Shown: piece by piece, positions 4,849 to 34,117 of the stretch
Layout of the letters: every line of letters starts with the position of its first letter
Position numbering within the stretch: the first letter of the stretch is position 1
DNA from: a virus
Virus record (IMG/VR): IMGVR_UViG_3300038321_000129
Coordinates: 1 to 34,117 of that record
DNA: 34,117 bases
Direction: 5' to 3' (one strand)
Notes under the pieces: generated by a model
Seen by the model: only the letters and a program-made list of their open reading frames with translations
The model's database searches: none
What the model was told of the DNA's origin: nothing
Made by a program: the position numbers and the translations under genes

Positions 4849-5294
4849 CTGGACTTACAACCGTTACGAAAAAAGATACCGGGATGTATATCGCGAACGT
4901 TGAGGCTCTCACCGCGAAACTCGATAACTATACTGATGACATGCTTGATAAAGTGATTCAGGGTCTCAAAGAATGCGGTGGGGAACTATCAGCGGAAGCG
5001 GTCAAACTGACCCCGGTAGACGTCGGAGAAATGCGCGCTCGGTCGTTTGTATCTGACGTCTACGTAAACGCAGAAGGAAACCTCGAAATAGCGGTAGGGT
5101 TTGAAAAACACGGAGCCGAAACGGGAACAGTTAACCCCAAATCAAAAGGTGTATTATATGCCGTCCCTCTGCATGAACGCACGAATGTTAGGCATAAGGT
5201 AGGGCAGGCAAAGTTCCTCGAAACCGCTCGGAACAACTTTGAACGTGAGTTTTTAGAGTCGATGAGAGAATACTGCAAAGAGGCAAAGCCATGA
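4845..5294 (+). CDS. HK97 gp10-like head-tail joining protein.
   Basis: Coupled start. The segment KLTPVDVGEMRARSF resembles the gp10-family motif P-x-D-T-G-x-L-R-x-S. Confidence 0.5.
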   Translation: MTGLTTVTKKDTGMYIANVEALTAKLDNYTDDMLDKVIQGLKECGGELSAEAVKLTPVDVGEMRARSFVSDVYVNAEGNLEIAVGFEKHGAETGTVNPKSKGVLYAVPLHERTNVRHKVGQAKFLETARNNFEREFLESMREYCKEAKP

Positions 5295-5683
5295 GCGTAG
5301 GCGACGACATGAAATCATTGCTGACAACTGCGGGAGTGACAGCTAACAAGAACTATCTTGATATGTCGGTTCAGAACGCAGTTGCCGTTATGGAAACCGG
5401 CGGGTTTAGCCCGATAAAATGTCACGGAGGGCCTACAACCACTACAACATTTGACCGTCCATCGTTTCAAATCCTCGTGCACAATGCATCAAAAGCGAGT
5501 GCGAACACGGTTATTGACACCATCGTAACCGCGCTCGATAACCGGGCAAACGAATCAATCAACGGACATTTCTATCAGTCCGTTCGGATGAGCACGCCGC
5601 CGTATTATTTAGGTCTGGTTCAGACTGCGGCTGGCGAAACAAACGAGTATTCAATTAATTTTGTTACTCAGAAAAACAGGTAA
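5291..5683 (+). CDS. Tail completion or terminator-like protein.
   Basis: 130 aa. Coupled start. Immediately precedes the major tail gene. Confidence 0.4.
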   Translation: MSVGDDMKSLLTTAGVTANKNYLDMSVQNAVAVMETGGFSPIKCHGGPTTTTTFDRPSFQILVHNASKASANTVIDTIVTALDNRANESINGHFYQSVRMSTPPYYLGLVQTAAGETNEYSINFVTQKNR

Positions 5684-5689
5684 TTTATC

Positions 5690-6097
5690 ATGGGAAGCAT
5701 TGGAAAAACTAGTACATTACTGAGCACAACCGTTTCAGCTCTCGGAACTGTGCTCACGATTGGCGACTATTCGTTTAGTCGCGGCGACATCGAAGATACC
5801 GCATACGGGTCTGGACTCTGGAGAACATTCATCGCCGGTCTTATCGACGGCGGGTCTATCCCGTTTACCATCGCGCAGGCAAAAGCAGAGACAGGTATTG
5901 AAACTCTTGAAGGTCTGTTTGCGGCTGGCACGTCGGAGACATGGACGCTTACATTCCCCGACGCATCCAAATGGGTGTTCACCGGGTTTGTCAACAGCAT
6001 CGGCGGAAGTCAGCCTATTGATGGACTTGTGACTATATCATTCGGAATCCGTATCGACGGTAAGACTCCACCCGCATACACGGCAGGAACCCCATAA
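5690..6097 (+). CDS. Major tail (tube) protein.
   Basis: 135 aa. Located directly upstream of the G/GT chaperone pair and the tape measure gene. Confidence 0.55.
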   Translation: MGSIGKTSTLLSTTVSALGTVLTIGDYSFSRGDIEDTAYGSGLWRTFIAGLIDGGSIPFTIAQAKAETGIETLEGLFAAGTSETWTLTFPDASKWVFTGFVNSIGGSQPIDGLVTISFGIRIDGKTPPAYTAGTP

Positions 6098-6405
6098 TGA
6101 AACTTGTGACAATTAAGGATGTGGAGTATAAAATACTCCCCTCTTTAAAAAATATGTGTCTTATCGAAGATGATATGCCGGGCTATAATCTGGCGTTAGG
6201 TGTGCCGGCCGATAAAGCAAATCTGCACTTTATGACGTCGTGTATTAAACGGTGTATTGTGACGATGGACGGCAAACCACTGCCGAAAGAGGTTTTTGAG
6301 GACCTTTACACCCGTGATACCGACGAGGAATTTAACCAGATTTTCCTTTCGGTGTTTACTGAGATGTATAAACTTCCTCCGAAGGACGAAACGGCAAAAA
6401 ACTAA
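6097..6405 (+). CDS. Tail assembly chaperone (G-like, zero-frame product).
   Basis: 102 aa between the tail tube and tape measure genes. Ends with the slippery heptamer A_AAA_AAC followed by TAA. Confidence 0.75.
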   Translation: MKLVTIKDVEYKILPSLKNMCLIEDDMPGYNLALGVPADKANLHFMTSCIKRCIVTMDGKPLPKEVFEDLYTRDTDEEFNQIFLSVFTEMYKLPPKDETAKN

Positions 6406-6743
6406 AACCGTTTTCCGGCGGTAATTTACATGATTACTGGGACACACTTGTTACGAGCGGACTATTTGACGACCCCATACAGGTAGGTAGATACACATTA
6501 TATCAGATATCTTTGATTGTCAGAGGCAAACACGCGAGAGACCGCCGGAATGATATGTATCACGGGAACATTGTAGCTATGCTGTATAATATCAATCGCG
6601 CAAAAGGTAAAGACCCGATAACGTGGAAAGATGTCTACCCAGAGGAAGTTCAGGAAATCCGGGAACAGTCGGTAAATGAAATGCAGGAAATAGCCAAAGC
6701 AATCACAAAAGCATTAGGGGGCACGATTACGGAATGTCGTTAG
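6097..6743 (+). CDS. Tail assembly chaperone, predicted -1 frameshift fusion (GT-like). Join 6097..6402 with 6402..6743.
   Basis: The -1 frame is open without stops from 6396 to 6743 (KKLKPFSGGNLHDYWDTLVTSGLFDDPIQVGRYTLYQISLIVRGKH...). It ends overlapping the tape measure start. Confidence 0.65.
6396..6402 (+). promoter_or_regulatory. Programmed -1 ribosomal frameshift slippery site A_AAA_AAC.
   Basis: Zero-frame codons gcA AAA AAC TAA. This is an X_XXY_YYZ heptamer one codon before the stop. Confidence 0.65.
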
Positions 6744-12312: not shown

Positions 12313-13089
12313 ATGCCTCTTGATTACGATACTGATAGATACGATGTTGGTGGATTTTCCACCACCCGCACATTACCTATACCACACCTTCTCGATTACG
12401 ATACGGATAGTTATGATGCTGGTGGATTTTCCACCACGCCGACCCCTATATTACCCTCATCATATCTAATCACCGCGCCAGAAATCCGTATATGTGACGA
12501 GAATTATATCCCGCGGATTGTCCTTGACGGATACAAAAATCTAACTTATACAGAACGACACAGAAACAGGGATTCATGGAGCTTTGAAGTATCCCGGCAA
12601 TCTAACTATGCACAATACCTCATCAAAGGACGAATTATACATTACGTTACTGGTGATTCTGTATATGCTTTGATTATCAAACAGATAGACGCAACCAAGG
12701 ATACTATCACGGTATCCGGCAACGAATACGCAGACGATTTATTATCCGCGAGGATTGCGCTTGTAGGCGTCCATGCCGGAGATGGCACGGACACAATACA
12801 GGATACCGCGGAAACCGCGTTTCGGCACTATGTCAACGGCAATATCATAGAAGCTACAGACACATATAGGCGTGACCCATTTCTGACTCTGGAACCTATA
12901 GATTATGGACGCGGCGAAACCGTGACGATATCAGCAAGATTCGATAATTTGCTTGACCTTTGCGAATCCATCGGGTCACTTGGAGGTATCGGGTGGCGGT
13001 CTGTAGTTGTAGACGACGACACAAAAGCGTGGGGTTGGTCTATCGTTATGTCCGTCGTTGAAGGAACCGATAAAGGGGAGGTAGTATAA
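12313..13089 (+). CDS. Baseplate or tail protein with a duplicated N-terminal LDYDTDxYDxGGFSTT module.
   Basis: 258 aa. The 24-aa module occurs twice (nt 12319-12366 and 12391-12438). Confidence 0.6.
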   Translation: MPLDYDTDRYDVGGFSTTRTLPIPHLLDYDTDSYDAGGFSTTPTPILPSSYLITAPEIRICDENYIPRIVLDGYKNLTYTERHRNRDSWSFEVSRQSNYAQYLIKGRIIHYVTGDSVYALIIKQIDATKDTITVSGNEYADDLLSARIALVGVHAGDGTDTIQDTAETAFRHYVNGNIIEATDTYRRDPFLTLEPIDYGRGETVTISARFDNLLDLCESIGSLGGIGWRSVVVDDDTKAWGWSIVMSVVEGTDKGEVV

Positions 13090-14756: not shown

Positions 14757-14767
14757 GATTTAGAGGA

Positions 14768-15220
14768 TTATTCCTCTATTTTTTCAACTGAGTATGTCAC
14801 GGTCTCTTTTACGTCGATGTCAACGTATGGCAACGAGTTTGATTTGCTACCAGTCATAACATCGAGTTCGGTCAACCCAACCTCGTAGTGGTTCAGTGCA
14901 TCCTGTTTATACCGGTCTTTGTCACAGTCTGGGATATCAACTGATTTATAAACAAACTTCCCGCCTGTAAATATGAGGTCCGGGTTAAGCTCAATGATAC
15001 GGTCGATGATAACCCTCCGCATTTCCCTGGTCTTGCGGTTAACCTGTAACCGGTATTCCCCGATACTCTGCGCTCCGTTCGCTGACTTGATATACGCCTC
15101 CTTCTGGATTTCAAGGGAACTGATTTTCGCGGTAATGGTCTTAAGCTGGTCGTTGAGCTGGGTTAGTTGTGAGTCTATCTTGTAGACTCGCTCGTATGGG
15201 TTTTCTTCAAGTTCAATCAT
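14768..15220 (-). CDS. Hypothetical protein with an N-terminal coiled coil.
   Basis: 150 aa. Heptad-like N-terminus (SQLTQLNDQLKTITAKISSLEIQKEAY). Confidence 0.6.
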   Translation of the reverse strand: MIELEENPYERVYKIDSQLTQLNDQLKTITAKISSLEIQKEAYIKSANGAQSIGEYRLQVNRKTREMRRVIIDRIIELNPDLIFTGGKFVYKSVDIPDCDKDRYKQDALNHYEVGLTELDVMTGSKSNSLPYVDIDVKETVTYSVEKIEE

Positions 15221-15318
15221 TCTTCTTTTTCCTCCGCGATAATAATATCTGGTTGTGCTTTTGCTCTCATCTCGTTTCGTTTTGCTTGTTCGGTGTCTGC
15301 GTCTATGATTTGGTTCAT
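15217..15318 (-). CDS. Hypothetical micro-protein (33 aa; below the ORF-track cutoff).
   Basis: MNQIIDADTEQAKRNEMRAKAQPDIIIAEEKEE. ATGA overlap with the downstream gene. Starts 4 nt after the stop of the upstream gene. Confidence 0.4.
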   Translation of the reverse strand: MNQIIDADTEQAKRNEMRAKAQPDIIIAEEKEE

Positions 15319-15322
15319 GGTT

Positions 15323-15577
15323 TTAGTCCTCGTGCTGTTTTTTTGAGAGGTTTTTAACAATTTGGATATATTTGGTAAAGCTCGCATCTAAATTAACTAT
15401 TACAGAAAATACCGATTCAACTTCTTTAAGATCGTCGGTGTTCATATGCCCACAAATACGCGCCCCGTTGATAAGACCTATCATATATGAGTATTCCTCA
15501 TCACTCATTGGTCGTGTTGCTCGTCCAACAGTGCGCATTTCGGCTTCAAATCCTTTTGCAAATGTTTCAGATATCAT
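15323..15577 (-). CDS. Hypothetical protein (84 aa from ATG 15577; alternative start 15616).
   Basis: A ggag SD sits 6 nt upstream of ATG 15577. ATG 15616 has no SD and abuts a hairpin. Confidence 0.5.
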   Translation of the reverse strand: MISETFAKGFEAEMRTVGRATRPMSDEEYSYMIGLINGARICGHMNTDDLKEVESVFSVIVNLDASFTKYIQIVKNLSKKQHED

Positions 15578-15618
15578 TGTTTTCTCCGTGCTCCTGTCAC
15601 GCATGACGGGGAGCATTC

Positions 15619-15649
15619 CGGGAAAATATAAAAAATTTAGAATTTCCCG
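15619..15649 (-). terminator. Intergenic hairpin (cgggaaa-N17-tttcccg) with T6 in the loop. Possible attenuator or terminator.
   Basis: 7-bp GC-containing stem spanning the stop codon of 15637..15879. Confidence 0.3.
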
Positions 15650-15879
15650 AGTTCTATACTTTCCCAGTTCCCCTGATCGATAACTCTATTTACATTGAAT
15701 GAATGGTATCTTACTACAATGTAGATTTTTTGTTCTCCAAGTTCTGGGTGTTCGTTGTCAATACCAGTAACATCTAAAGAAACCATTGTATTATCATAAC
15801 TTGTGTTCTTTACTGTGAATCCTTTTGCCGAGTATTTTTCTGCAAGTTCTTTCCCTTTTTCCTGTTGAAGTTTTGTCAT
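15637..15879 (-). CDS. Hypothetical protein (80 aa). First gene downstream of IR-A.
   Basis: Preceded by the conserved leader hairpin and SD (aggagaaactaaaATG-type). Confidence 0.65.
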   Translation of the reverse strand: MTKLQQEKGKELAEKYSAKGFTVKNTSYDNTMVSLDVTGIDNEHPELGEQKIYIVVRYHSFNVNRVIDQGNWESIELGKF

Positions 15880-15911
15880 TTTAGTTTCTCCATGTAGTTT
15901 GTCTTACTACA
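15880..15911 (-). promoter_or_regulatory. Conserved 5' leader hairpin plus SD, copy A.
   Basis: mRNA sense tgtagtaagacaaactacatggagaaactaaaATG. 6-bp stem tgtagt/actaca. Confidence 0.55.
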
Positions 15912-15930
15912 TATACTCTATTAGCTCTTA

Positions 15931-15945
15931 AAGTATATATACTTA
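15931..15945. promoter_or_regulatory. Palindromic TATA-like motif AAGTATATATACTTA.
   Basis: Exact consensus. Centre lies 59 nt upstream of ATG 15879. Confidence 0.55.
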
Positions 15946-16095
15946 TCTAAATCAATGGATTAAATTATAAGATTTTAATATTTGTTTATAATCAAGAGTT
16001 AGAAAGTATTCTGCGCTCAAATTGAGCCGCGTTTGTCTAAATACCTTAGTATATCTATTATATTATATATATATATATTATTATATATAATAATA

Positions 16096-16191
16096 AGAGT
16101 GTGTATTACTGTGGGGTTGTGAGGTGTCCGAACCACTCGTGCACAGTCCCACAGACGCGGGTGTAGTAAAAAGTTAGAATTTAATATTTTT
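16096..16191 (+). ncRNA. Candidate small RNA, or protein-binding cassette, in IR-A (strand uncertain).
   Basis: Conserved 5' agagtgtgt. Copy-specific GC-rich core with inverted ctgtggg (16109-16115) and cccacag (16148-16154). Conserved 3' ttagaatttaatattttt ending in T5. The AT-rich block lies immediately upstream. Confidence 0.3.
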
Positions 16192-16329
16192 GGAAAAAAT
16201 CTAAGGCTATACTAAACTCCAATCGTCCAACGGAGCTTAGTATGGGCTTGCCTTATTTTCTAATACCCTATTGTTTTTTATTATTTTTTATTATAATTAA
16301 ATAATTTAAGAGGATGGGTGAAAATGGGA

Positions 16330-16623
16330 TTATTTTTTGATCGTGCGCCTTGATAGTTCCTCCGTGATATTATTGTATGTCTTTTTCCATACCGGGGCGT
16401 CTATGGCTGGATTTCCTAAGTTATCGTTTTCCATATGCTCCTCGATGTCCTGTTTAATTACTGCCAGTGTATTATTTGATAAGTGTTTTATATGCTCATT
16501 GATAATCCCGCATACAGTATGCGGCGCATAGGTCATACGCCCTATCGCATACCGTTCTGCGTAAGTCAAAACCTCCTCGAAGTCAAACTTTGAGAGGGTT
16601 ACAGTTTCGCCAGTGGTTTTCAT
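16330..16623 (-). CDS. Hypothetical protein (97 aa).
   Basis: ATGA-coupled start at 16623 with a ggtggag SD. The track start 16635 lies inside the upstream gene. Confidence 0.6.
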   Translation of the reverse strand: MKTTGETVTLSKFDFEEVLTYAERYAIGRMTYAPHTVCGIINEHIKHLSNNTLAVIKQDIEEHMENDNLGNPAIDAPVWKKTYNNITEELSRRTIKK

Positions 16624-17075
16624 TTCTCCACCCACATCTTACACTTCGCCCCCGCGGATACGCTCATAGGCACGCTGGCGCGTTTTACGACACTTTGGTT
16701 GTTAGATGACTCTCTGATACGACAGCCGCCATAAAACGCGCTGTAGTGCTTACACGTGGCGCACGTGTCACTATAGATATACACGCCGCTTTCTGATATG
16801 TACTGCTTGCGTTTAGGGTTGACCCTCAGCGGATCGTTTGGGTATGGTAATGATGTCGCCGTAACCGCCTCTTGACGTGCTATACTAGCCGCGTTGCGGT
16901 TAGCTCGGGCATTTACTTTGGTCTCTTTTGCCCGTTTGTTGTAACATGCTTTACAAATCTTTCTATATCCAAGTTTCGTGTATGAGTCCCTCGGAAATTC
17001 GTTAAGCGGTTTCAGTTCGCCGCATTTGATACAGCGGTGTAGGGTCTTGAGGTTTGGTATGGTTGGTTCTGTCAT
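16620..17075 (-). CDS. Zn-ribbon protein (phage-type CxxC...LNEF...CKAC module).
   Basis: HRCIKCGELKPLNEFPRDSYTKLGYRKICKACYNKRAKE, plus C-terminal Cys pairs. Confidence 0.6.
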   Translation of the reverse strand: MTEPTIPNLKTLHRCIKCGELKPLNEFPRDSYTKLGYRKICKACYNKRAKETKVNARANRNAASIARQEAVTATSLPYPNDPLRVNPKRKQYISESGVYIYSDTCATCKHYSAFYGGCRIRESSNNQSVVKRASVPMSVSAGAKCKMWVEK

Positions 17076-17077
17076 GA

Positions 17078-17524
17078 TTATGTCTCCTTCTTGATACGTT
17101 CTATTTCTTTTTCATACTTCGATTTATGGGTTTTTCGTTGAGATTCATACATACATTCTTTCGAACAAAATCTTGGTAACCATCCCCGGTGATCATAATC
17201 ATAGTCTACCTGCGATTTACGACGCCTAAACTCGGTTCCGCATATCTCACAAGTAAATAATTCAAACTGTGCACCATATCCACCAACTCTAGGACAAGTT
17301 GGTTTGATTACACAGTCCCAATATTTCCTATAGGTATCTATACATTCCGTTCGGTGTAATCTATAATATGATTTGCAGTATTCTCCACGGCATGATTTAC
17401 AATAAAATTGTAATCCATCTTTCCTTGATTTATCAGCATAAAATTCGCTCAGCGGCAATTCTCGCCCGCATTTAGTGCATACTTTCGTTAACTCGTCTGT
17501 CATTTTTTGTTTGCTCCATGTCAT
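17078..17524 (-). CDS. Zn-ribbon protein (paralogous N-terminal module).
   Basis: CTKCGRELPLSEFYADKSRKDGLQFYCKSCRGEY. Further CxxC pairs (CEICGTEF, CSKEC). Confidence 0.6.
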   Translation of the reverse strand: MTWSKQKMTDELTKVCTKCGRELPLSEFYADKSRKDGLQFYCKSCRGEYCKSYYRLHRTECIDTYRKYWDCVIKPTCPRVGGYGAQFELFTCEICGTEFRRRKSQVDYDYDHRGWLPRFCSKECMYESQRKTHKSKYEKEIERIKKET

Positions 17525-18872: not shown

Positions 18873-20258
18873 TCATTTTTTCAATTGTTTTTGTTCTCCG
18901 GTTCTTACCATGACCGTAGGGTCTGTCAACGGTATCTGGTAGACGTTTAGCGGGTGTCCGCGCTTCGAGTTGTCTTGCACACATTCGACCCCGCAATCTT
19001 CCAAATAATCATTTATCATCTTCCAATCGTTAGAACTTACGTTAATACCATTGCGCTTAATCTCTTCCCGTGTTACGGACATGTTCCCTCCAACGTGAAG
19101 TAAATTGTATATCGCTTCTCCCTGCCGAACTATCCGCGGTGGATACGTCTGGCGTTCGGCCTCATATTTTTTCATGACCTTATTAGACTTGCCAGCGATC
19201 TCAAGAGCATCTGACATGGCATCTTGGGTTATAATAACTCCGTTGTTTTTGATACTGGATACCGTCTGCATGGATTTATACGGTTGGTTTAGTAAGGATA
19301 ACACAATAGCCAATCGTTTTGCTTTGTCAAGGTGACGGGTCTGCAGAGTTTTTTCAATGATATCCTCACACTCAAGGGTTTTCTTTTGCTGTCCGCGGTC
19401 AAGTTCTCTGAGATTGAGCTTTCCGGGTTCCAGACTGCATTTAACCGGTGTCTTAAGTGGTGCGTTATAATCGCTTAACTTGATATGCTCCGCGCCTTCC
19501 ATTCGGTTAACAAAGTTCCCCCCGAGAAATAGCACGTCAGCGATACGATCAAACACACGGTAAGGGAGTTTAGTATCCTTAAGCTGATAATCCACTATCG
19601 CTTCCGGGATATAAAAAAACATATACCGGGACATATCGCCAGACTCAAAGTTTTCTTCGCAAAGTATTTCGCTCATCTGGTTGTGTGTTCCAAAGCCTAA
19701 CAAGGTCAACGCCGGGCGGATAATTATCTGTTCCCGGTCAGTTTCATTTTTGGGTGTGTTGCGTTTGTCCTTGGAGTACTTTTTGGGTCTCATCGACATA
19801 TCAGACAGGGTATAAGCTTTTGTCAGCGCGACAAGAGCAGTTTTCCCGATGATGTCAGATGCGAGGTTGGCGAGTGTCCTTCCAAACTCGTCCACGCACA
19901 TAATAGCTTGTGGTTGCGACACAATCGCCGAATGCACACCAGCATCAGACGAAAAACTCGACCCGTTCATAATCAACTCGGGACAGTGGATATCATCACC
20001 CCATCGTGTGATGATCTTTTCAAGGTCAGCTTTCCCAGACCCTGACGCGCCGAACACAACGACATACACATTCGAATATGACCCGTCAAACACAAAGTTC
20101 CTTGAACATATTCCAGCTCCAAACACAAGTGCCGATAAATACGCGCTGATACGATGCGGGCGGTATGCGTTCTCTAAGAAATTGTTAGCGAGGTCTGCAA
20201 GGACGCCGTGTAATACTGGTAACCCCTCCAAAACAAACTCGTCATTCTGGGTTGCCAT
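18873..20258 (-). CDS. P-loop NTPase. Candidate replication initiator or helicase-like protein.
   Basis: 461 aa. Walker A VVVFGASGSGKAD. Walker B-like AIMCVDEFG. Basic C-terminal region. Family not assignable by eye. Confidence 0.45.
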   Translation of the reverse strand: MATQNDEFVLEGLPVLHGVLADLANNFLENAYRPHRISAYLSALVFGAGICSRNFVFDGSYSNVYVVVFGASGSGKADLEKIITRWGDDIHCPELIMNGSSFSSDAGVHSAIVSQPQAIMCVDEFGRTLANLASDIIGKTALVALTKAYTLSDMSMRPKKYSKDKRNTPKNETDREQIIIRPALTLLGFGTHNQMSEILCEENFESGDMSRYMFFYIPEAIVDYQLKDTKLPYRVFDRIADVLFLGGNFVNRMEGAEHIKLSDYNAPLKTPVKCSLEPGKLNLRELDRGQQKKTLECEDIIEKTLQTRHLDKAKRLAIVLSLLNQPYKSMQTVSSIKNNGVIITQDAMSDALEIAGKSNKVMKKYEAERQTYPPRIVRQGEAIYNLLHVGGNMSVTREEIKRNGINVSSNDWKMINDYLEDCGVECVQDNSKRGHPLNVYQIPLTDPTVMVRTGEQKQLKK

Positions 20259-20485: not shown

Positions 20486-20746
20486 TTACCAGTTTTCACC
20501 GTATAGACTATCCATTTTCTCCCAAAATTTCTTATCAATGCCAGCGAGATCGGAATACTTAGAATATTTGTTGTAAATCATAAGACCTTCTTCAGCATTT
20601 AAGATACTTTCTGCGGCATCTAACATCCCTTCAATTTTGAAGGAATGCCATCTAAAGTTTTTACGGTCTAGGTTCTCTACTGCTCTTTTGAGTCCGTTAA
20701 TTCGCTCATCAAAGAGTTCACAGAATTTATCATAGTTTCGTGTCAT
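20486..20746 (-). CDS. Hypothetical protein (86 aa) with the conserved leader.
   Basis: Preceded by the third copy of the promoter-leader module. Confidence 0.65.
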   Translation of the reverse strand: MTRNYDKFCELFDERINGLKRAVENLDRKNFRWHSFKIEGMLDAAESILNAEEGLMIYNKYSKYSDLAGIDKKFWEKMDSLYGENW

Positions 20747-20778
20747 TTTAGTTTCTCCTTGTAGTTCGTCTTACTACA
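20747..20778 (-). promoter_or_regulatory. Conserved 5' leader hairpin plus SD, copy C.
   Basis: mRNA sense tgtagtaagacgaactacaaggagaaactaaaATG. Confidence 0.55.
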
Positions 20779-20796
20779 ATAATATATATGTCGTAT

Positions 20797-20811
20797 AAGT
20801 ATATATACTTA
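20797..20811. promoter_or_regulatory. Palindromic TATA-like motif AAGTATATATACTTA.
   Basis: Exact consensus. Centre lies 58 nt upstream of ATG 20746. Confidence 0.55.
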
Positions 20812-21051
20812 ACTATTATAATACAAGCAATCTAAAAGAAGGTTGAGGATTTCAGGGCAGAAGAAAGACCCTTGCGAGGTATGGCAACGTGATATTAGGT
20901 ATCCTTAAGGTGTGTGGTATCTATGGCAAAGTGGAGATGTCCCGTTATACGTGTCATTATGGTTAGGAGGTTGTGTAAGAAGTTCCCCATAATCCTCAAC
21001 AAAGATAACTTGGTGTATTGGATATTAATGCTTTCGGTGAAAAAAAGAGGG

Positions 21052-23861: not shown

Positions 23862-24857
23862 TTATGGTTTTAATCTTAGGTCCACATAGTCTTTAAAATC
23901 CGAACTATAAAACCCAGAGAATCCTTCAAAACCGTTTGTAACCAATACATCACCTAAGAGATATGTTACAGATGGTTCATCACCCACATTAACTCCATAC
24001 ACAGGTAAGGGGATTAACGCGGGATTATACAGATGGTCGGCGCAATATTTACAATCATAGTCATCATGTCCCAAAGCACAATCAAACATACCTGTTTTAA
24101 GGTTCGGCGTTGAGTGCGCACACGTCCGGCATGACACGTTAGGGATACATTTCCCGTGACAAATATCCTTAAAATCACAATATCGGCACTGATAATAATC
24201 AGGATTATCATTCAGTCGGACAGGCGGCACGGTCGCAGTCGTAACGATACGGGCCTTTTCTCTGAGTTGTTCGGTGTATGCCTTGTTAAACTTGACCCGT
24301 TCGCCGTAGATGTCGTCAGTGTCTTTCAGGACGGCGAAGTAATACGCACGATCTAACCCGGACCATAACATATACAGTTGCATCTGTGCGTAATGTTGGG
24401 GTTTGGATTTCATGACACCCGCGGTTTTCATGGCCTTGAAGTTCGCGGTGTTCATCGTCTTGACTTCGATGACGTGTTTTGTTTTCGGAGCTTCAATAAA
24501 CCCCCGCCCTATTCCGTCAACACTTCCCGATAGGAACTTGTTATCTTCATCGACATAATGGAACTGTCTGCCGTTTGTATCCCGCGTCTGGATGTCGATA
24601 CCGATATCAGACAAGTTCTTTAACAGTCTGTCCTCTTCCCGGTTGCCGGTCTCAAACAGCCGAAGCATACGACCATCGAACGAGGTCTTAGATTCTGCAC
24701 ACCATCTAAACTGATACCAAAGATATCTCAGACATGGATGTCCTATCTGGGACGCTCCTAAGTGTTTACGGGGTTGCATGACGTTCGCAGATTTAACGTA
24801 ATGCTCGTAAATCTGTTTTACTGTGGGGGTCTCGGTTTCAATAAAAATATCTACCAT
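23862..24857 (-). CDS. Cas4-like PD-(D/E)XK exonuclease with Cys clusters.
   Basis: GSVDGIG...HVIEVKT (D...ExK). QHYAQMQLY (QxxxY). N-terminal C (HPCLRY) plus CRYCDFKDIC, matching a Cas4-type 4-Cys pattern. Extra C-terminal CxxC pairs. Confidence 0.7.
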   Translation of the reverse strand: MVDIFIETETPTVKQIYEHYVKSANVMQPRKHLGASQIGHPCLRYLWYQFRWCAESKTSFDGRMLRLFETGNREEDRLLKNLSDIGIDIQTRDTNGRQFHYVDEDNKFLSGSVDGIGRGFIEAPKTKHVIEVKTMNTANFKAMKTAGVMKSKPQHYAQMQLYMLWSGLDRAYYFAVLKDTDDIYGERVKFNKAYTEQLREKARIVTTATVPPVRLNDNPDYYQCRYCDFKDICHGKCIPNVSCRTCAHSTPNLKTGMFDCALGHDDYDCKYCADHLYNPALIPLPVYGVNVGDEPSVTYLLGDVLVTNGFEGFSGFYSSDFKDYVDLRLKP

Positions 24858-24879
24858 AATAACAACCTAAAAAAAGAGG

Positions 24880-25341
24880 TTAGTTCCCGAATGGGAGCCC
24901 GGCTTTCTGGTCGTCTACTGGCAGTGTGTGCCCGCCGTTGATACTGTGATGTTTCCTAACCTCATTGTTAGCGGAATAGATGCCGACAGCCGGCTTAATC
25001 ACAACGTCAATACACATGATTTTGTTGTGCAGTTCCTCAGTTCGTTTAATACGAAGCACGCCACACGCTTCACAGATTTCTGCAAGCCTGATGTTTGCGA
25101 TCTTCATGGTTTTCACATCGTTCTCTGATGTGGTAGCCCGCCAGAGGTTGAGGGTTTCAAAGATGACGCGGTTCTTGTATTCGCCGTCTACAATGTTCCA
25201 ACGGATGCTAAGATACTTGTTTCCGGGTGTTTTCGCATCTTTGATTTCGGTTGATGCAATCAGTGCTTTGTAAGTCCCTGCCGGGATAGGGTCATACGAC
25301 GAGTCTTTTTCTACGGTTGTGCTGTCAAAGTTAAATTCCAT
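24880..25341 (-). CDS. DUF669-like protein (putative ssDNA-binding partner of the Sak4-type ATPase).
   Basis: Start reassigned to ATG 25341 (aaggaga SD). MEFNFDSTTVEKDSSYDPIPAGTYKALI...GEYKNRVIFETLNL matches my recollection of the DUF669 N-terminal pattern. Confidence 0.7.
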   Translation of the reverse strand: MEFNFDSTTVEKDSSYDPIPAGTYKALIASTEIKDAKTPGNKYLSIRWNIVDGEYKNRVIFETLNLWRATTSENDVKTMKIANIRLAEICEACGVLRIKRTEELHNKIMCIDVVIKPAVGIYSANNEVRKHHSINGGHTLPVDDQKAGLPFGN

Positions 25342-25345
25342 GGTT

Positions 25346-26110
25346 TCAGTTCTCCTTGTTTGTCTTTTTTGTAGTCGTCTGCGGTTCGGTTGGATACAGG
25401 TATTTGGCAATCTCAGACCATACCATAGGTATCTCATCCGGCATTTCGTAACGGGTCTTTGCCGTGTATGCCGGGTTGCTGTGGGTAAATATCACATGCT
25501 CACCGGCCGTGGTAGCGAGGTTGCGTTTCCCGTCGTTTGTGGTATAGACCTTTACAAGTGCATACCCGACGACGTCACACCATTCAACGACCCTAAGAGA
25601 TTCTGTCTTATACAAGTGGATACTCTGTTTGTCGTATTCCGGGAGGAGTGGGTCTGCCACCTTGACAACAGCCGCGTGGGCAATTAAGATAATAGTCATA
25701 CCCTTATCTCGTAACAAGTCAAGGCACTTAAACCAGTTCGCCCATACTGCCGTTCGTGCCTGATACCCCGCGCCGTATGCGCCTTTACTGATATCGGTGT
25801 ATCGGTTCTCAGCGCACACTTTAAGAGTGATCAATTCCTCCACGACATCAAGCGAATCAACGACGATCGTTTTAAAGTCGTGTTCCTGCGTGTAAAGAGC
25901 TTCTAAGATGTCCATACATTCCGCGTATGTTTTAGCGCGGACGTTTGGGACACTTGCGAGTGCTGGCGGGATGCCGTCCTCAAGGTTAAGCACAAAGGGT
26001 TTATTTGCCTTGCATGCAAAAGTTGTCTTTCCAACCCCTTCCCCACCATAGATACAAATCCGCGGGGGTTTAGCGAGGTTAGTTTTCAGTTCAGCCAAGT
26101 TATAAGCCAT
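25346..26110 (-). CDS. Sak4-like RecA-fold ATPase (AAA_24-type).
   Basis: Walker A ICIYGGEGVGKTTFA. Walker B TIVVDSLD. First gene of the minus-strand block. Confidence 0.7.
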   Translation of the reverse strand: MAYNLAELKTNLAKPPRICIYGGEGVGKTTFACKANKPFVLNLEDGIPPALASVPNVRAKTYAECMDILEALYTQEHDFKTIVVDSLDVVEELITLKVCAENRYTDISKGAYGAGYQARTAVWANWFKCLDLLRDKGMTIILIAHAAVVKVADPLLPEYDKQSIHLYKTESLRVVEWCDVVGYALVKVYTTNDGKRNLATTAGEHVIFTHSNPAYTAKTRYEMPDEIPMVWSEIAKYLYPTEPQTTTKKTNKEN

Positions 26111-27869: not shown

Positions 27870-28321
27870 CGCGAAAACAGAAATATACACCTAAATGCAC
27901 GTCTGCCGAAAAGGCCGTTAGAATAGCCACGATTTACCGGTTACTCCTCAGCGGAATGCGTCGGCGCGAGGTGTTACAATATGTAACAGAGAAAACCGAT
28001 TGGGGGATAGAAACATCTGCCATTGACAAATACATAGCGGAAGCGACGAAAGAGATCAAGGAAGTCACCGCCGAAGAGATTGAAACCGCGCGGGGAATGG
28101 CATACAAACGACTCGACACGCTTTATTATAAATCGCTTTTAATCAACGATTATAAAACCGCACTTGCTGTCCAAAAAGAGATGAATGAACTGTTTGGACT
28201 GAAAATTATTAAACAGGAAATATCTGGGAATATGGGTGTCCAGTTTGTCGACGACGTGCCGAAAGACGCTGCCAAACCAGACCATACGGCTGACGACATA
28301 GATGTAGATGAAGGGTATTAA
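27866..28321 (+). CDS. terS: Putative terminase small subunit.
   Basis: 151 aa. Overlaps and immediately precedes TerL. No diagnostic motif. Confidence 0.45.
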   Translation: MTRKQKYTPKCTSAEKAVRIATIYRLLLSGMRRREVLQYVTEKTDWGIETSAIDKYIAEATKEIKEVTAEEIETARGMAYKRLDTLYYKSLLINDYKTALAVQKEMNELFGLKIIKQEISGNMGVQFVDDVPKDAAKPDHTADDIDVDEGY

Positions 28322-29981
28322 AGACCTCTTAACCCCTGCGTTTTATCACGCATGGAACGCTTTATTCAATCCCCTCTATACCTATTACATTTTCAAGGGC
28401 GGTAGGAACTCGGGGAAAAGCACGTTTGTATCTCGGTGTATTATCCTCCTCATGATGAAGTTCCCGGTTAACGCGCTCGTTGTCCGTAAAGTGGCGAATA
28501 CCCTGTCTGAATCCGTCTATGAACAGTTGATAGACTCCATCGAATCGTTAGGCGTAAACGATTACTGGAAACGGTCTAAGAGTCCGCTGGGACTGATGTA
28601 TATTCCGAGAGGGAACCGTATCATATTCAGGGGTGCAGACGATCCAGTTAAACTCAAATCCATCAAGTCTCACAAATTCCCCATTGCTATTTTATGGATT
28701 GAGGAGGTATCCGAGTTTAAAAATGAGGATGAAGTTAGCACGATCGTTAACTCCGTTATCCGGGCTGAGTTGCCGGAAGGGTTAAAATATTATATCTTTT
28801 ACAGTTATAACCCGCCCCGCGCGCTTAACTCATGGGTCAATGTCAAATACAATACTTCGCTGATACCTTCTGATACCTACGTTCACCATTCGACGGTCAA
28901 TGATAACCCATACCTCAGTAAACAGCTCAAAGCCACGCTCATAGAGCTTCAAGCCAAGAAACCCGATCGGTATAGATGGGAGTTCCTCGGTGAAGCTGTA
29001 GGCTCTGGAGTCATGCCGTTCGATAATCTTGTATTCCGCGAGATCACAGATGAGGAGATACGGACCTTTGATAATTATCGGTGTGGTATCGACTGGGGAT
29101 ATGCTAACGATGCGTTTGCGTATGTCCGCTGGCATTATGATCGAACACGCCGGAAGATATATGCAGTCGATGAACGGTATGGTGTGCGGCTCACTGACCG
29201 GTCAAACGCAGATTGGCTCAAGGCTAGGAGGTATGCGAACGACCATACGTATATCAAAGCCGATTCCGCCGAACCTAAGACGATAGACTTGTATCGGAAC
29301 GATTACAACGTGACGAATATAATTGCGGCTACTAAGGGACCCGGGAGTGTAGAGACTGGGGAGAAGTGGCTGAATGATGAGATATTAGAGATCGTTATTG
29401 ACGAGAGACGCACGCCGAATATCGGAAGGGAGTTTAGGACTATCGACTATGCCCGAACCAAGGACGGCACGATATTAAGCCGATTGGTGGATTTGGATAA
29501 TCATTGTATTGCTGAAGGGACTCTGATTACAACCGATAAAGGACAAAGACCGATCGAAACGTTAAGTATTGGTGATTGGGTCTTAACTAGAGACGGATTT
29601 AAACGAGTATTGAAGGTATGGGATAATGGGGTTAGGGACGTTGTTTCGGTTAAATTATCTAATGGTTATTCACTGACAGCAACCCACGATCATAAACTTT
29701 TCGTTAACTTAGAAAGGTTTGTGCCGATAGATGAAATAAGTTATACCGACACGCTATATTGTTTAAATAAATCGGTCGCAGAGGATGCGCAAATCGTATC
29801 AGTGCAAGACGCCGGAAAGATGCAGGTTTATGATTTAACCGTTGAAGATTCTCATGAATATTTTGCCAATGGAATCTTAGTCCACAATTGCATCGACGCC
29901 ACACGCTACGCATTCGAGGACGATATAGGCGTTGGAACTTACGAGGATTACGGGTTTATGTCCGGTGGTGGATTGATTTAA
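28308..29981 (+). CDS. terL: Terminase large subunit (PBSX/Terminase_3-like) interrupted by a mini-intein.
   Basis: Walker A FKGGRNSGKST. Walker B ILWIEEVSE. Nuclease Asp GIDWGYANDAF. The C-terminal nuclease motif DNH|CIDATRYAFED is split by 128 aa. Confidence 0.9.
   Translation: MKGIKDLLTPAFYHAWNALFNPLYTYYIFKGGRNSGKSTFVSRCIILLMMKFPVNALVVRKVANTLSESVYEQLIDSIESLGVNDYWKRSKSPLGLMYIPRGNRIIFRGADDPVKLKSIKSHKFPIAILWIEEVSEFKNEDEVSTIVNSVIRAELPEGLKYYIFYSYNPPRALNSWVNVKYNTSLIPSDTYVHHSTVNDNPYLSKQLKATLIELQAKKPDRYRWEFLGEAVGSGVMPFDNLVFREITDEEIRTFDNYRCGIDWGYANDAFAYVRWHYDRTRRKIYAVDERYGVRLTDRSNADWLKARRYANDHTYIKADSAEPKTIDLYRNDYNVTNIIAATKGPGSVETGEKWLNDEILEIVIDERRTPNIGREFRTIDYARTKDGTILSRLVDLDNHCIAEGTLITTDKGQRPIETLSIGDWVLTRDGFKRVLKVWDNGVRDVVSVKLSNGYSLTATHDHKLFVNLERFVPIDEISYTDTLYCLNKSVAEDAQIVSVQDAGKMQVYDLTVEDSHEYFANGILVHNCIDATRYAFEDDIGVGTYEDYGFMSGGGLI
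29505..29888 (+). mobile_element. Class-1 mini-intein (128 aa, no homing-endonuclease domain) in TerL.
   Basis: Block A CIAEGTLI. Block B LTATHDHKLF. Block F VYDLTVEDSHEYFANG. Block G ILVHN followed by +1 Cys. In frame (384 nt). AT-richer than the flanking extein. Confidence 0.85.
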
Positions 29982-30824: not shown

Positions 30825-32183
30825 ATGCCAGTAGCAAAACAGCCAAAGAAAACCGAGTCCGAAGGGCTTGTATCAGGTGGAGTTCGCAACCTCCCGAAAA
30901 AAGTTACCGTGGAGACCGTAAGAGAGTGGACGAACAGCGTATATCTTGCCAAGAATATCAAAGATTTTGGCGTGCAGATTTACCCGGAACCGCCAGTAAT
31001 TACCGTTACCAACGATGATAAAGGCGAGGAAGTCCCGGAATTGTCGAAAGAGATCGCGCAGAATTTTAAAGATGTTCGCGCGTGGTCGGCAATTCAGAAT
31101 GTATATTCTGATGTAGGGTTCTGGGGGGCGTCTCTAAATAGTATCGGCCGCGCTCAGGTTAATGGCAAATGGACGATAACAGAGATAAGACACCTTCCGG
31201 CTGAATCGTTCACCGGATACCAGACCGGAACTATCATCAACCCACTACTACCCGGTATTACTCTCGATTCTGACGGCAAACCGCTGTTTTTCCAGACGGA
31301 TTATGAAACATATCAGACGAAACTATTAACCAACGTAACCTCTATCACCGATCTCTCCACCCCGAAATATGCGGGGAAGGCAATTTGTTATCCGTTATAC
31401 CGCTTGATGGCAACAATTGAGATGGTAGATACTGCATTATGCCAGCAGGTAAACCGTATTGGCGCGCCTACTATCATGCCGCAGATCGACCCGACATATA
31501 CACCTAGACCTTCAGATAAGGATGTAAAAACGTGGTTTGCCGCGTTCGCTAAACGATGGGGTAAGGATAGTGCGTTTGTCATCCCCCCGTGGGCAACATT
31601 CCCCGACCTGAAAATCAGAGAGGGCACGACTGCCGCCGACCTAAAAGCCGTGCTTGTTAAGTATATCGACGATTACTTTAACCCGTTATCAGTTTTCCAG
31701 TCAGAGACATCAACCCTTGGAAGTTCAGACTCGACCCGCGGGCAGATATACGCGGATTATATCCGAAGCTTACAGGAAATGTCCGTGGAATGGCTTGAAC
31801 ACGAGTATAACATTATCCTCGAGATGAACGGGTATGTGAACCATTCATGTCATATCAAACTGAAACGCCCGGTCGTCGATAAATCATCAGCAATTTTAGA
31901 ACAAATCAAGGTAGGTATCGCCGGCAAGAGCCTGACAAAAGCCGAGATACGCAACAACTTAACCGAACTTGAATTAGAGGATACCACCCCGGAACTTGAG
32001 CAGGCTCTGGAAAAGGAGTATCAGAACGCCGGAGGAGGGTTTAGTTTTGGAAACGTCGCTGACGTTGAGAACTTTACATCACCCGAGGAACGGATAATGT
32101 CCGATACCGAGAAGCGTATTATCGAGCTGAATAAAAAAGCAATGGACGGGATATACGGAATAATGAACTTGCCGACGGAGTAA
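30825..32183 (+). CDS. Portal protein.
   Basis: 452 aa. Lies between TerL and the MuF-like gene. Size and synteny only. Confidence 0.6.
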   Translation: MPVAKQPKKTESEGLVSGGVRNLPKKVTVETVREWTNSVYLAKNIKDFGVQIYPEPPVITVTNDDKGEEVPELSKEIAQNFKDVRAWSAIQNVYSDVGFWGASLNSIGRAQVNGKWTITEIRHLPAESFTGYQTGTIINPLLPGITLDSDGKPLFFQTDYETYQTKLLTNVTSITDLSTPKYAGKAICYPLYRLMATIEMVDTALCQQVNRIGAPTIMPQIDPTYTPRPSDKDVKTWFAAFAKRWGKDSAFVIPPWATFPDLKIREGTTAADLKAVLVKYIDDYFNPLSVFQSETSTLGSSDSTRGQIYADYIRSLQEMSVEWLEHEYNIILEMNGYVNHSCHIKLKRPVVDKSSAILEQIKVGIAGKSLTKAEIRNNLTELELEDTTPELEQALEKEYQNAGGGFSFGNVADVENFTSPEERIMSDTEKRIIELNKKAMDGIYGIMNLPTE

Positions 32184-32189
32184 TAAACC

Positions 32190-32921
32190 GTGGTATCGAA
32201 ACAGCAACAGACCCAGATAGATAGACTCATGCGGTTGCGTCAGACCGCTATGGCCACCATTTTTGCTCAGGCCGCACGAGAGATGTCAATGGTTGCATCT
32301 AAAGAAGCGTTGTCAGGGTTGGCAAAGACCGGATATACGGTAGCATCAGCAGAAGGCATCACAGATAAGATCATAGCGGATTATACTAGGAATATTTTAA
32401 ACGGCGGCACAGACTGTATAGAGCGTGTTCTAACGCCTGTAAAGGGTGGGATGTATAAAGCCACCACCCGGCAGGTGTTCGTGCCTTGGCTGGCTGATAT
32501 GAGCGTCAGAGACACATCCAACATTATCACCCTGATAGGTGATGCGGAACAGGCTGGAGTTCACCCGCGACAGATAGCCAAAGAACTTGAGGCATACTTC
32601 GAAGGCACAAAACACAACGCTATGACAGCCGCCAGAACGGAAGCATCTAAGATACGCAATGATGCCCGGTCCGCATCGTTTGAAGAGTCGGGAGTCAAGT
32701 ATGTAGAGTATGTGACGGCCGGAGATGAGCTGGTAAGACCCGAACACGCGATGCGGAACGGGAAGATATATCCACATAATAGTAGTCCAATGGTGGGCGA
32801 GTTTAACTGCCGCTGTCTGCTTGTCCCGGCTGACTGGAAAGTAAACCGAAAGGGGGCCATAGTAACAAAAAGCGATGCAGAATATCTTACCAAGGAACAA
32901 GTAGGGATGGTGTCAGCATGA
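32190..32921 (+). CDS. Head morphogenesis protein (SPP1 gp7 / Mu F-like).
   Basis: ELVRPEHAMRNGKIY...EFNCRCLLVP matches the family hallmark (R-P-x-H...G...N-C-R-C). The track start is GTG. Confidence 0.75.
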   Translation: MVSKQQQTQIDRLMRLRQTAMATIFAQAAREMSMVASKEALSGLAKTGYTVASAEGITDKIIADYTRNILNGGTDCIERVLTPVKGGMYKATTRQVFVPWLADMSVRDTSNIITLIGDAEQAGVHPRQIAKELEAYFEGTKHNAMTAARTEASKIRNDARSASFEESGVKYVEYVTAGDELVRPEHAMRNGKIYPHNSSPMVGEFNCRCLLVPADWKVNRKGAIVTKSDAEYLTKEQVGMVSA

Positions 32922-33088
32922 GCCACACGAAACGAGTTTATAATAATCCACGAAGCGGGTTCTATGTTCACCCCTACCATATGGTATGTTGTGGGAACTG
33001 TGATTCGTGTAAAGATACTTCACTCGGTAAAAAATGGAGAATGGACCGTAAAAAAGAACTACTCAACGAATTTCACGAGGTATTATGA
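32918..33088 (+). CDS. Hypothetical small Cys-rich protein (56 aa; below the ORF-track cutoff).
   Basis: ATGA overlaps at both ends. MSHTKRVYNNPRSGFYVHPYHMVCCGNCDSCKDTSLGKKWRMDRKKELLNEFHEVL. Confidence 0.5.
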   Translation: MSHTKRVYNNPRSGFYVHPYHMVCCGNCDSCKDTSLGKKWRMDRKKELLNEFHEVL

Positions 33089-33363
33089 GCCGCCTGCCCG
33101 CACTCACACCCGACCAGAAACAGACGATCGCTGAGAACTTATACCTATTCCCAGCTGATATTATGCGCATTTCCGGGATGGAAACAGCTTCCAAAGGCCA
33201 AATAATCGCCGAGCAGAAGCGGATCCGGGAGGTAGACAACACCCCTGATTCCGAGTACCTATATTATATTTTAATAAATTATATCGAAAAACACGGATTA
33301 AAGGTTATTTACTCAAACGGAGTCTTTGGATGGCTTGAATCACTCAAACCACCCAAAAAATAA
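33085..33363 (+). CDS. Hypothetical protein (92 aa).
   Basis: Coupled start. Last gene before IR-B. Confidence 0.6.
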   Translation: MSRLPALTPDQKQTIAENLYLFPADIMRISGMETASKGQIIAEQKRIREVDNTPDSEYLYYILINYIEKHGLKVIYSNGVFGWLESLKPPKK

Positions 33364-33477
33364 TCTATTTGTTACTATACTTATCCGATTTATTTCTAAT
33401 ACCTATTAGAAAATAAGGCGAGCCATTTCTGAACCCCGTTCGCCGAATGCGCTTTTGTATGAACGTAGATTTTTTTT

Positions 33478-33565
33478 AAAAATATTAAATTCTTAAATTC
33501 TAATACCCCTCGTCCGTGGGGCCGCCCACCCGGCCCGGTGAGTCCCACAGGAACACACACACTCT
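33478..33565 (-). ncRNA. Candidate small RNA, or protein-binding cassette, in IR-B (strand uncertain).
   Basis: Minus strand reads agagtgtgt, then a GC-rich core (cctgtgggactcaccgggccgggtgggcggccccacgg), then ttagaatttaagaatttaatattttt. Same flanks as the IR-A cassette but a different core. Confidence 0.3.
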
Positions 33566-33714
33566 ATTATTATATATAATAATATATATATATATAATAT
33601 AATAGATATACTAGAGTAGATTGGCAAATCGCGCCCAAATTCAGCCCCGAATACTTTCTAACTTTTGATTATAAACAAATATTAAATTATAAGATTTTAA
33701 TATTATTGATAGAT

Positions 33715-33729
33715 AAGTATATATACTTA
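33715..33729. promoter_or_regulatory. Palindromic TATA-like motif AAGTATATATACTTA.
   Basis: Exact consensus. Centre lies 57 nt upstream of ATG 33779. Confidence 0.55.
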
Positions 33730-33746
33730 TACAACATATATAGTAT

Positions 33747-33778
33747 TGTAGTAATACAAACTACAAGGAGAAACTAAA
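33747..33778 (+). promoter_or_regulatory. Conserved 5' leader hairpin plus SD, copy B.
   Basis: tgtagtaatacaaactacaaggagaaactaaaATG. 6-bp stem tgtagt/actaca. Confidence 0.55.
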
Positions 33779-33973
33779 ATGAAATTCTACGAAAACTCAG
33801 AACTTGTAGCGACACTGAACAATGATGATGCAATTGAGCACTGTCTCAAATGCCCATATTGTTACCACAACGAGGATGGATCACACACATGCACTATAGG
33901 TGTTGAAGATTTTAACCTCGAAGAAAGGTTAGAATACGAAGATGACAACCAGCTTGAATGCTGGATGTCCTAA
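33779..33973 (+). CDS. Small acidic Cys-containing protein (64 aa). First gene downstream of IR-B.
   Basis: CLKCPYCYHNEDGSHTC. A T5 tract follows the stop. Confidence 0.6.
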   Translation: MKFYENSELVATLNNDDAIEHCLKCPYCYHNEDGSHTCTIGVEDFNLEERLEYEDDNQLECWMS

Positions 33974-34018: not shown

Positions 34019-34117
34019 GGAGATTAAAGAAATTATGATTGAGAAACAGAAAACACTTGATAATAGCCAATTGAAAACGCTTGATGATATCGCAAGTTCG
34101 TATTGTGAATTAGAGTG
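34019..34117. repeat. Terminal direct repeat, copy 2 (identical to 1..99).
   Basis: Verbatim duplicate of the window start. It contains the SD and the first 83 nt of ORF 17..217. Confidence 0.95.

Follow-up and report, generated by a model that had tools for sequence, protein, structure and literature searches.

The stretch of DNA analysed here (the window) is the complete virus record IMGVR_UViG_3300038321_000129 of IMG/VR, 34,117 nucleotides in length, and the element in question is an intergenic inverted repeat that occurs in it twice, as copy A (15876–16265, minus strand) and copy B (33404–33782, plus strand). The repeats are old paralogous copies, designated A-type and B-type, of a composite intergenic boundary module. 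The best available explanation is that they represent paired origin-like modules which are stable and do not undergo flip-flop isomerisation, a reading to which we assign a probability of about one half and in which protein binding, DNA melting and initiation of replication are inferred. Each module combines three parts: a T-run terminator ending the upstream operon; an origin-like core made up of an invariant 40-bp AT tract, an inverted pair of F2 motifs and F1 motifs, with variable GC-rich spacers; and a promoter palindrome, leader and ribosome-binding site driving a hypervariable cargo slot. The cores would act in cis as paired replication elements recognised by the DUF3987 protein of the virus, an AAA+ ATPase with a winged helix, and might be either two origins or one origin and a second binding site that stalls forks, resembling oriL and oriR of the Bacillus phage SPP1.

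The termini of the window carry a 99-nt direct repeat (1–99 = 34019–34117), which yields a circle of 34,018 bp. The window is matched at 100% identity by two independent ENA assemblies, each of which closes as a circle by another overlap, their lengths being 34,073 bp (34,018 + 55; ERZ724037, 254× coverage) and 34,137 bp (34,018 + 119); single circular contigs with one arrangement are thereby available at k = 55, 99 and 119. The circle given in a preliminary description of this DNA is confirmed by these data, as are its nearly antipodal inverted copies: modules of ~390 bp delimit arcs of 16,112 and 17,139 bp, and their centres are separated by 0.515 of the circle. As had been described, the leader ends of the two copies point into the 16.1-kb arc (ATG at 15879, minus strand, and ATG at 33779, plus strand). 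Each module is co-oriented with local transcription, and the shared facing direction and the inverted orientation result from the divergent/convergent gene layout, transcription being divergent at 26.1–27.25 kb and convergent at 14,732/14,768. By our own calculation the chance of two random points being this near antipodal is ~3%, and in a complete relative (see below) the copies are separated by 0.53/0.47 of the circle. Near-antipodality is therefore not treated as selected; it is real, but neither statistically compelling nor tightly conserved.

Copy A lies between gene 16330–16635 and the cargo gene 15637–15879, and copy B between gene 33085–33363 and the cargo gene 33779–33973. The repeat is built of colinear blocks of 36 nt (94% identity), 37 nt (81%), 137 nt (85%) and 106 nt (75%). 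A gapped alignment that runs from the left end as far as the promoter palindrome gives 71% identity, and the longest exact run common to both, 49 nt, is the AT core. A profile of the two-copy part found exactly two strong matches in the window, with E-values of 1e-81 (copy A) and 1e-85 (copy B), and two in the complete relative; the inverted repeat is thus far beyond chance.

Scans with proteins and DNA patterns recovered ~20 copies of the element from several anaerobic-digester and fermentation datasets. They stem from the complete relative, two contigs of 11–12 kb, about a dozen short contigs and one contig of a metagenome-assembled genome (MAG). The complete relative is a circle of 37,593 bp with ~83% nucleotide identity to the window, is colinear with it and carries both types. 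Identity amounts to 79–96% within a type and to 63–72% between A and B (71% in the window, 70% in the relative), the two copies of one genome being no more similar than copies of different genomes. A-type copies share a common 21-nt insert together with their own versions of four variable cassettes, these features being linked in 13 full copies, and B-type copies share alternative versions of all four cassettes. When the four copies of the window and the complete relative were compared as a quartet, 43 variable sites followed type, 10 followed genome and one neither. Since the types cluster across genomes, the duplication predates the split of these viruses and has not been followed by homogenisation.

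The surroundings of each type are constant as well. A-type copies are invariably preceded by a homologue of gene 16330, with gene 14768 and the tail-fibre gene beyond them; a homologue of gene 33085 always stands before B-type copies, and genes 17, 214 and 1006 come after them. Where both flanks are visible, the arrangement is parental in all 11 copies, and a recombinant junction is likewise absent from those copies whose downstream flank is informative (8 A-type, 9 B-type). Taken with the identical circular assemblies, the constant flanks are therefore evidence against regular isomerisation: the genome exists in one stable arrangement, within the limit that assemblies alone are blind to a minor isomer of a few percent, roughly below 5–10%. 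It follows for repeats of this kind that inverted copies bisecting a viral circle need not isomerise, and that a comparison of copies between genomes suffices to show so.

A 38-mer pattern and gene 16330 as a protein probe gave no match in IMG/VR, neither megablast with 25 kb nor sensitive blastn with copy B gave a match among cultured phages, and the element is absent from the more distant relatives L003 and L004, from provirus vir524 and from SPP1. One locus from the metagenome scan (L017) proved to be a false positive in unrelated AT-rich DNA, and the Methanoculleus virus Blf4 is unrelated (63% GC, all genes on one strand).

Read along transcription, the module begins with an F2 motif, a hairpin with a run of T6–T8, box 1 (F1), a variable GC-rich cassette, the block CACAGTAATACAC and the AT tract; there follow a third variable cassette, GAATACTTTCTAAC with an inverted F2, box 2, the palindrome AAGTATATATACTT, a leader hairpin, GGAG and the ATG. 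In copy B the F2 motif of the left flank, TTAGAAAATA (33406–33415, plus strand), pairs with the inverted F2, TTAGAAAGTA (33652–33661, minus strand), which is situated to the right of the AT core (33565–33604; 40 bp of pure A/T) within the invariant block GAATACTTTCTAAC. F1 of box 1, AATATTAAATT (33481–33491, plus strand), stands just past a T8 run (33470–33477, plus strand) that is likely the transcription stop of the upstream operon; B-type copies have a weak hairpin ahead of this run. Box 2 of copy B (33678–33704) is a 27-bp near-palindrome composed of two inverted F1 half-sites (AATATTAAATT-ATAAG-ATTTTAATATT), and it is followed by the promoter palindrome, leader hairpin, GGAG ribosome-binding site and ATG (33715–33781, plus strand).

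The corresponding parts of copy A are an F2 in the left flank (16254–16263, minus strand), a terminator (16194–16252, minus strand), F1 of box 1 (16178–16188, minus strand), an AT core of 41 bp pure A/T (16056–16096), an F2 to the right of the core that is inverted relative to the first (15999–16008, plus strand), box 2 (15959–15982, minus strand) and the promoter palindrome, leader, ribosome-binding site and ATG (15877–15944, minus strand). The terminator comprises a 17-bp sense-strand hairpin with G·U-compatible changes and a T6 run, and the A-type consensus folds at −21.8 kcal/mol in sense versus −12.5 kcal/mol in antisense. Box 2 of copy A contains F1 with one mismatch and a partial inverted half-site, its 9-nt loop being flipped relative to copy B. 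Because of this flip between the types, a ~22-nt piece of box 2, ATTAAATTATAAGATTTTAATA (15955–15980 and 33677–33702), reads the same on the plus strand at both loci and forms a direct repeat in genome terms. Each loop state is kept among the relatives with the exception of one contig, L026. An inversion of the entire central part of the module between the types was considered and rejected, as the blocks on either side of the core align forward.

A third promoter/leader cassette without the origin-like part stands alone at 20743–20816 (minus strand; 74 nt, 93%), so that the last ~75 nt of the repeat represent a separate multi-copy unit; the upstream ~300 nt of the module occur only twice in the genome. 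The 14-bp palindrome AAGTATATATACTT has eight occurrences where none is expected by chance, all of them intergenic (15931, 17561, 20797, 26181, 27110, 27145, 30710 and 33715), and a variant lies at ~26216. It is a promoter or operator motif used genome-wide and is TATA-like at its centre; in the recurrent promoter motif a TATATATA centre is preceded by purine-rich sequence that is conserved. The palindrome is paired in both divergent control regions (26.2 and 27.1 kb). In the genome as a whole sigma-70-like promoter sites are not enriched and hairpin (intrinsic) terminators are fewer than in shuffled sequences; termination seems to rest on T-runs.

The resemblance to replication origins lies in the core. 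No other 50-bp windows of the genome are as unstable as the two AT cores (z = 4.8 versus 3.8 for the next), with that of copy B the least stable duplex of all, and with 40–41 bp of pure A/T both have the AT-richness and ease of melting of an unwinding element. All closely related copies agree exactly in a 24-nt stretch of the core, TATATAATAATATATATATATATA, against differences of 20–30% in the flanks. F2 (TTAGAAARTA) has four matches in the genome against 0.09 expected, all of them in the two copies and arranged as inverted pairs around the core. Exact matches to F1 (AATATTAAATT) are likewise confined to the two copies.

The candidate for an initiator, or a self-loading helicase, acting on these modules is the DUF3987 protein (18873–20258, minus strand), an AAA+ ATPase with a C-terminal winged helix. 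PHROGs labels it a primase, which is imprecise. Its AlphaFold model (pLDDT 75) comprises a Walker-type ATPase and a winged helix at residues 374–441. The best PDB matches of the model are Orc1/Cdc6, MCM subunits and an archaeal Cdc6/Orc1–DNA complex, at probabilities of 0.97–1.0, and the best viral matches are helicase modules of phage primase-helicases with TM-scores up to 0.60. In the more distant relative L042 (MAG GCA_043955425.1), whose DUF3987 protein shares 62% identity with that of the virus, the gene is followed after 45 nt by a homologous element (E 1e-20), which bears palindromic F2 sites at both ends. The element profile gave no match in L041 (27.7% GC; DUF3987 protein 39% identical).

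Comparison with phage SPP1 adds the position of copy B. In SPP1, two origin-like regions are bound by the initiator G38P: oriL lies in the replication module, and oriR, together with three moron genes that have transcription signals on either side, lies between the minor-head gene 7 and the scaffold gene 11 (PMC6316719). The initiator at oriR has been proposed to stall forks and thereby to start recombination-dependent concatemer synthesis (PMC6316719, PMC3485210, PMC5737612). Copy B comes after a gp7-like gene (32190–32921) and two small genes, and before the small genes 33779–417 and the scaffold gene 2009–2413; compared with SPP1 3802–7558 this is the position of oriR. The SPP1 oriR spacer (4729–5063) can be read as terminator, repeats, AT-rich tract, promoter, ribosome-binding site and gene 8, which is the same order of parts as in copy B. 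Both viruses have two origin-like regions per genome with repeats beside an AT-rich unwinding element, one region being in the replication module and the other breaking the head-gene order, and the virus studied here also has exonuclease, annealing or RecA-like, single-strand-binding and resolvase-like genes, functions that in SPP1 process the forks stalled at oriR. There are also differences. The SPP1 copies share ~48 nt (87%) in direct orientation, whereas here ~390 bp are inverted; oriL of SPP1 is located inside the initiator gene, while the two copies of the present module stand between genes; the initiator of SPP1 is the DnaD-like G38P, whereas the candidate here is the AAA+ winged-helix DUF3987 protein; and the spacing is 30:70 in SPP1 versus 49:51 here. 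The element profile had no match in SPP1, and no DnaD-like or G38P-like protein was found in the virus.

Other replicons offer partial parallels. Archaeal origins have an AT centre flanked by repeats and lie beside orc1/cdc6, and in herpes simplex virus 1 an AT-rich palindromic origin is placed within an inverted repeat and is hence present twice. In staphylococcal pathogenicity islands (SaPIs) iterons occur on either side of a central AT-rich region beside the rep gene, which encodes a self-loading helicase (PMC9371898). As in these islands, short oppositely pointing repeats flank an AT centre, here as the inverted F2 pair; the islands have the gene of an AAA+ winged-helix initiator/helicase beside the origin, and in L042 the gene of the candidate initiator adjoins the element. 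The repeats of the present modules are, however, fewer and longer than those of SaPIs (10–11 nt versus 5–6 nt), and each genome has the module twice, joined both times to a terminator and a cargo promoter. Paired origin-like elements as such are already known; here they are inverted, fully intergenic, of two stable types and each fused to a cargo promoter. The twin origins considered in the preliminary description are supported by indirect evidence only, namely the AT core with its motifs, the AAA+ winged-helix protein, the adjacency in L042 and the SPP1 oriR position.

Several observations weigh against origin-like modules. When one mismatch is permitted, F1 is only moderately enriched, with 6 matches versus 2.0 expected, a number reached in 2 of 100 shuffles, and the left F2 site varies among the relatives. 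The strict invariance of the AT core exceeds what unwinding would need and could reflect use as a TATA-type promoter or another sequence-specific binder. Placement between terminator and promoter and co-orientation on both arms would equally be expected of a purely regulatory element. The structural matches of the DUF3987 model in the PDB have TM-scores of 0.2–0.38, and neither single-sequence nor profile searches gave a PDB sequence match to the protein. In the window itself copy A is separated from the DUF3987 gene by 2.6 kb with five genes between them. Finally, the relatives come from few similar anaerobic-digester or fermentation samples and are not fully independent.

The main rival, a somewhat unlikely one, is a module devoted to transcription control alone. 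The ~300 bp from T-run to palindrome would then be the upstream regulatory region of a temporal class formed by two transcription units, with no role in replication; regulators would bind at F1 and F2, and the AT tract would function as a TATA-rich or UP-like element or as a promoter in both directions. Besides the placement, the co-orientation and the invariance of the core beyond mere AT-richness, this possibility draws on the promoter family with its TATATATA centre, as TATA-like DNA may be read by the transcription machinery, especially in an archaeon, and on an antisense sigma-70-like site that in each copy extends over the right edge of the core. However, six further members of the promoter family work without this upstream region, the AT core is kept whichever gene sits downstream although that gene changes freely, the element of L042 directly follows an initiator-like gene, and sigma-70-like sites are nowhere in the genome enriched over shuffles.

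If the origin-like modules are taken further, to a working pair of replication elements in a tailed virus, possibly with an archaeal (methanogen) host, the complete scheme is an unlikely one. The AAA+ winged-helix protein would fire one copy; the other, ~180 degrees away and of opposite polarity, would serve as a second origin or as a fork trap; the trap would prompt a change to the synthesis of concatemers by means of the Sak4, Cas4-like and resolvase genes; and each origin would also be a replication-coupled promoter of an accessory slot, perhaps with anti-defence genes. To our knowledge, replication origins of uncultivated tailed viruses have almost never been identified, and least of all for viruses with Sak4, DUF669, PD-(D/E)XK nuclease and DUF3987 genes or for methanogen viruses. 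The modules provide two concrete candidate origins whose motifs are defined, along with a candidate protein to bind them. Were they confirmed as origins, the two-origin logic known from SPP1 would also apply in an unrelated lineage, in an inverted, near-antipodal geometry, and origin function would be tied to the expression of hypervariable accessory slots.

The cargo gene of slot A (15637–15879, minus strand) encodes 80 amino acids and that of slot B (33779–33973, plus strand) 64 amino acids, the latter in a position that is hypervariable among the relatives. The first gene past each copy is hypervariable, at least eight different genes having been found there. The MLPVMRDRSTEKTM-gene and the MKLGDL-gene occupy slot A in some genomes and slot B in others, and the MKV(S/N)DYV-gene is found in the B slots of L014 and L019 and in the chimeric A slot of L026. 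Traces of exchange were detected within the modules, too. A 12-nt patch to the right of the AT core is alike within a genome and differs between genomes, and it contains 7 of the 10 genome-consistent sites. Contig L026 combines an A-type left part with a B-type box 2 and promoter and with a cargo gene otherwise of B slots, inside A-type outer flanks; since these flanks are kept, it represents a patch and not an inversion, or possibly an assembly chimera. The idea in the preliminary description that exchange swaps cassettes and the genes behind them receives limited support from the L026 joint, and such exchange is confined to short patches and to the swapping of cargo genes downstream.

It is nonetheless quite improbable that the modules are mainly a recombination scaffold, that is, homology arms letting co-infecting relatives swap cargo between or within slots. 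The many different first genes and the change of slot by the MLPVMRDRSTEKTM-, MKLGDL- and MKV(S/N)DYV-genes would suit such a function. The slot-A cargo gene, however, also occurs behind a non-module promoter (in L038 and L039), so that what moves is the ~75-nt promoter/leader cassette, which occurs at 8 or more sites, rather than the two-copy core. A scaffold would moreover leave the invariant AT core and the F1/F2 motifs unexplained, and some of the cargo mosaics could be assembly chimeras formed through the shared blocks.

The slots themselves (33779–417 and 14768–15879; loci L014–L026 and L033–L039) contain small, rapidly changing genes with no assigned function, several being Cys-rich. 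The sole recurring member is a 67-aa protein with two membrane-spanning segments (214–417), and no endolysin or holin was recognised among the genes scanned. A 53-nt stretch (15574–15626, minus strand) at the start of gene 15323–15616, which encodes the N-terminus MLPVMRDRSTEKTM, is 98% identical in relatives, with flanks at ~80%, and is found in both cargo slots (relatives L016, L024, L026 and L020). The genes that carry it vary in length and contain repeated peptide modules, IIDADTEQA.RNE.R.RAQPEIIIAEE.

That the core is a structured non-coding RNA, sense or antisense, with two diverged gene copies appears very unlikely. GC-rich cassettes of A-type copies can form hairpins, T-runs near box 1 could end an antisense transcript, and a consensus fold has a long-range pairing of box 1 with box 2 and two covarying columns. 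This fold is weak, however (−15 kcal/mol over 336 columns, covariation term −0.75), and its covariation is a single A-versus-B difference, broken in A_win and L026, that arises because both boxes are copies of one DNA motif. For the GC cassettes of B-type copies neither strand gives a conserved fold, indels distinguish the cassettes from one another, and of the folds calculated per cassette that of the A-type terminator hairpin alone is convincing. No Rfam match near threshold was obtained for the core (whole window at the gathering threshold; copy B at E ≤ 1). A potential G-quadruplex, which most A-type copies have in sense and B-type copies in antisense, hence on the same physical strand, was also considered and dropped, as A_win is without the motif; the pattern is due to an A-type insertion of a G-rich hairpin arm, seen in the forward alignment.

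The flip-flop inversion raised in the preliminary description, that is, a regular turning of the 16.1-kb arc by recombination of one copy with the other, on the model of the 2-micron plasmid, plastid genomes or herpesviruses, is extremely unlikely, for although the repeats nearly bisect the circle, share the 49-nt identical tract, bear the exchange traces of the 12-nt patch and L026 and are accompanied by Sak4-like, DUF669 and Cas4-like general recombination genes, the copies have diverged to ~71% identity as separate lineages (43 versus 10 sites), the flanks are parental in 11 of 11 cases, the circular assemblies are identical in arrangement, and no Ser/Tyr (site-specific) recombinase was found among the open reading frames scanned with PHROGs, Pfam and NCBIfam, a scan that covered the structural open reading frames in part. 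The repeats of the 2-micron plasmid (FLP/FRT), of plastids and of herpesviruses (oriS in the repeats flanking the short unique region) also split a replicon into two arcs, but they are kept identical or nearly so by recombination and both isomers coexist, whereas the present copies evolve separately, a single isomer is seen and an FLP-like recombinase was not found.

Evidence on the host of the virus is mixed. The large terminase subunit TerL (28308–29981, plus strand) is 59% identical to TerL of Brevibacillus phages, its closest relatives being phages of Firmicutes; the matches to the Brevibacillus phage terminases span residues 1–401 only. Intein_splicing and weak Hint domains are among the Pfam matches of TerL, which appears to contain an intein. 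The portal (30825–32183) and capsid (2413–3261) proteins fall into no PHROG family and match only one of 50,697 phage records, the Methanomicrobiales provirus vir524, at 24% identity, and the minor head protein likewise has its best match in this provirus. To judge from these similarities, a methanogenic archaeon is a plausible host. Promoter and terminator would then go by other names and the main argument would be unchanged. The sole match in a cellular genome is L026 (JAQUIZ010000184.1), a 4.2-kb contig of a close relative that was binned in a MAG of Fermentimonas (Bacteroidota), probably as an artefact.

The genes of the window are organised in two arms. The plus-strand arm extends from 27255 through the origin of the circle to 14732 and begins with a small-terminase candidate, TerL, the portal, the gp7-like minor head protein (Phage_Mu_F) and two small genes before copy B; three or four small genes, a DUF3800-X RNA, the scaffold, the capsid and tail genes follow it. 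The minus-strand arm, from 26110 to 16330, starts with the three recombination genes named in the preliminary description, which are all present at 23862–26110: the Sak4-like ATPase (25346–26110), the DUF669 single-strand-binding-like protein (24880–25437) and the Cas4-like exonuclease (23862–24857), all on the minus strand. Next come an HNH endonuclease, a methyltransferase, a RadD-like helicase, the DUF3987 protein, two unknowns, two endonuclease-VII/HNH-like genes and one small gene; copy A and then three small genes follow.

The two adjacent genes just upstream of copy A (16620–17075 and 17078–17524, minus strand) have the same family matches, both being Zn-ribbon endonuclease-VII/HNH-like, and are candidate junction-resolving enzymes. 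At the point of convergence (14761–14778) there is a perfect 7-bp hairpin with T-runs on both strands, likely a two-way terminator. No tRNA or tmRNA was found in the window. The DUF3800-X RNA motif (463–536, plus strand) scores above the Rfam gathering threshold (54.1 bits, E 3e-9) and is located between the slot-B cargo and the head genes. A 48-nt direct repeat (12318–12365 and 12390–12437, plus strand; 90% identical, 72-nt spacing) lies inside the minor tail gene 12313–13089.

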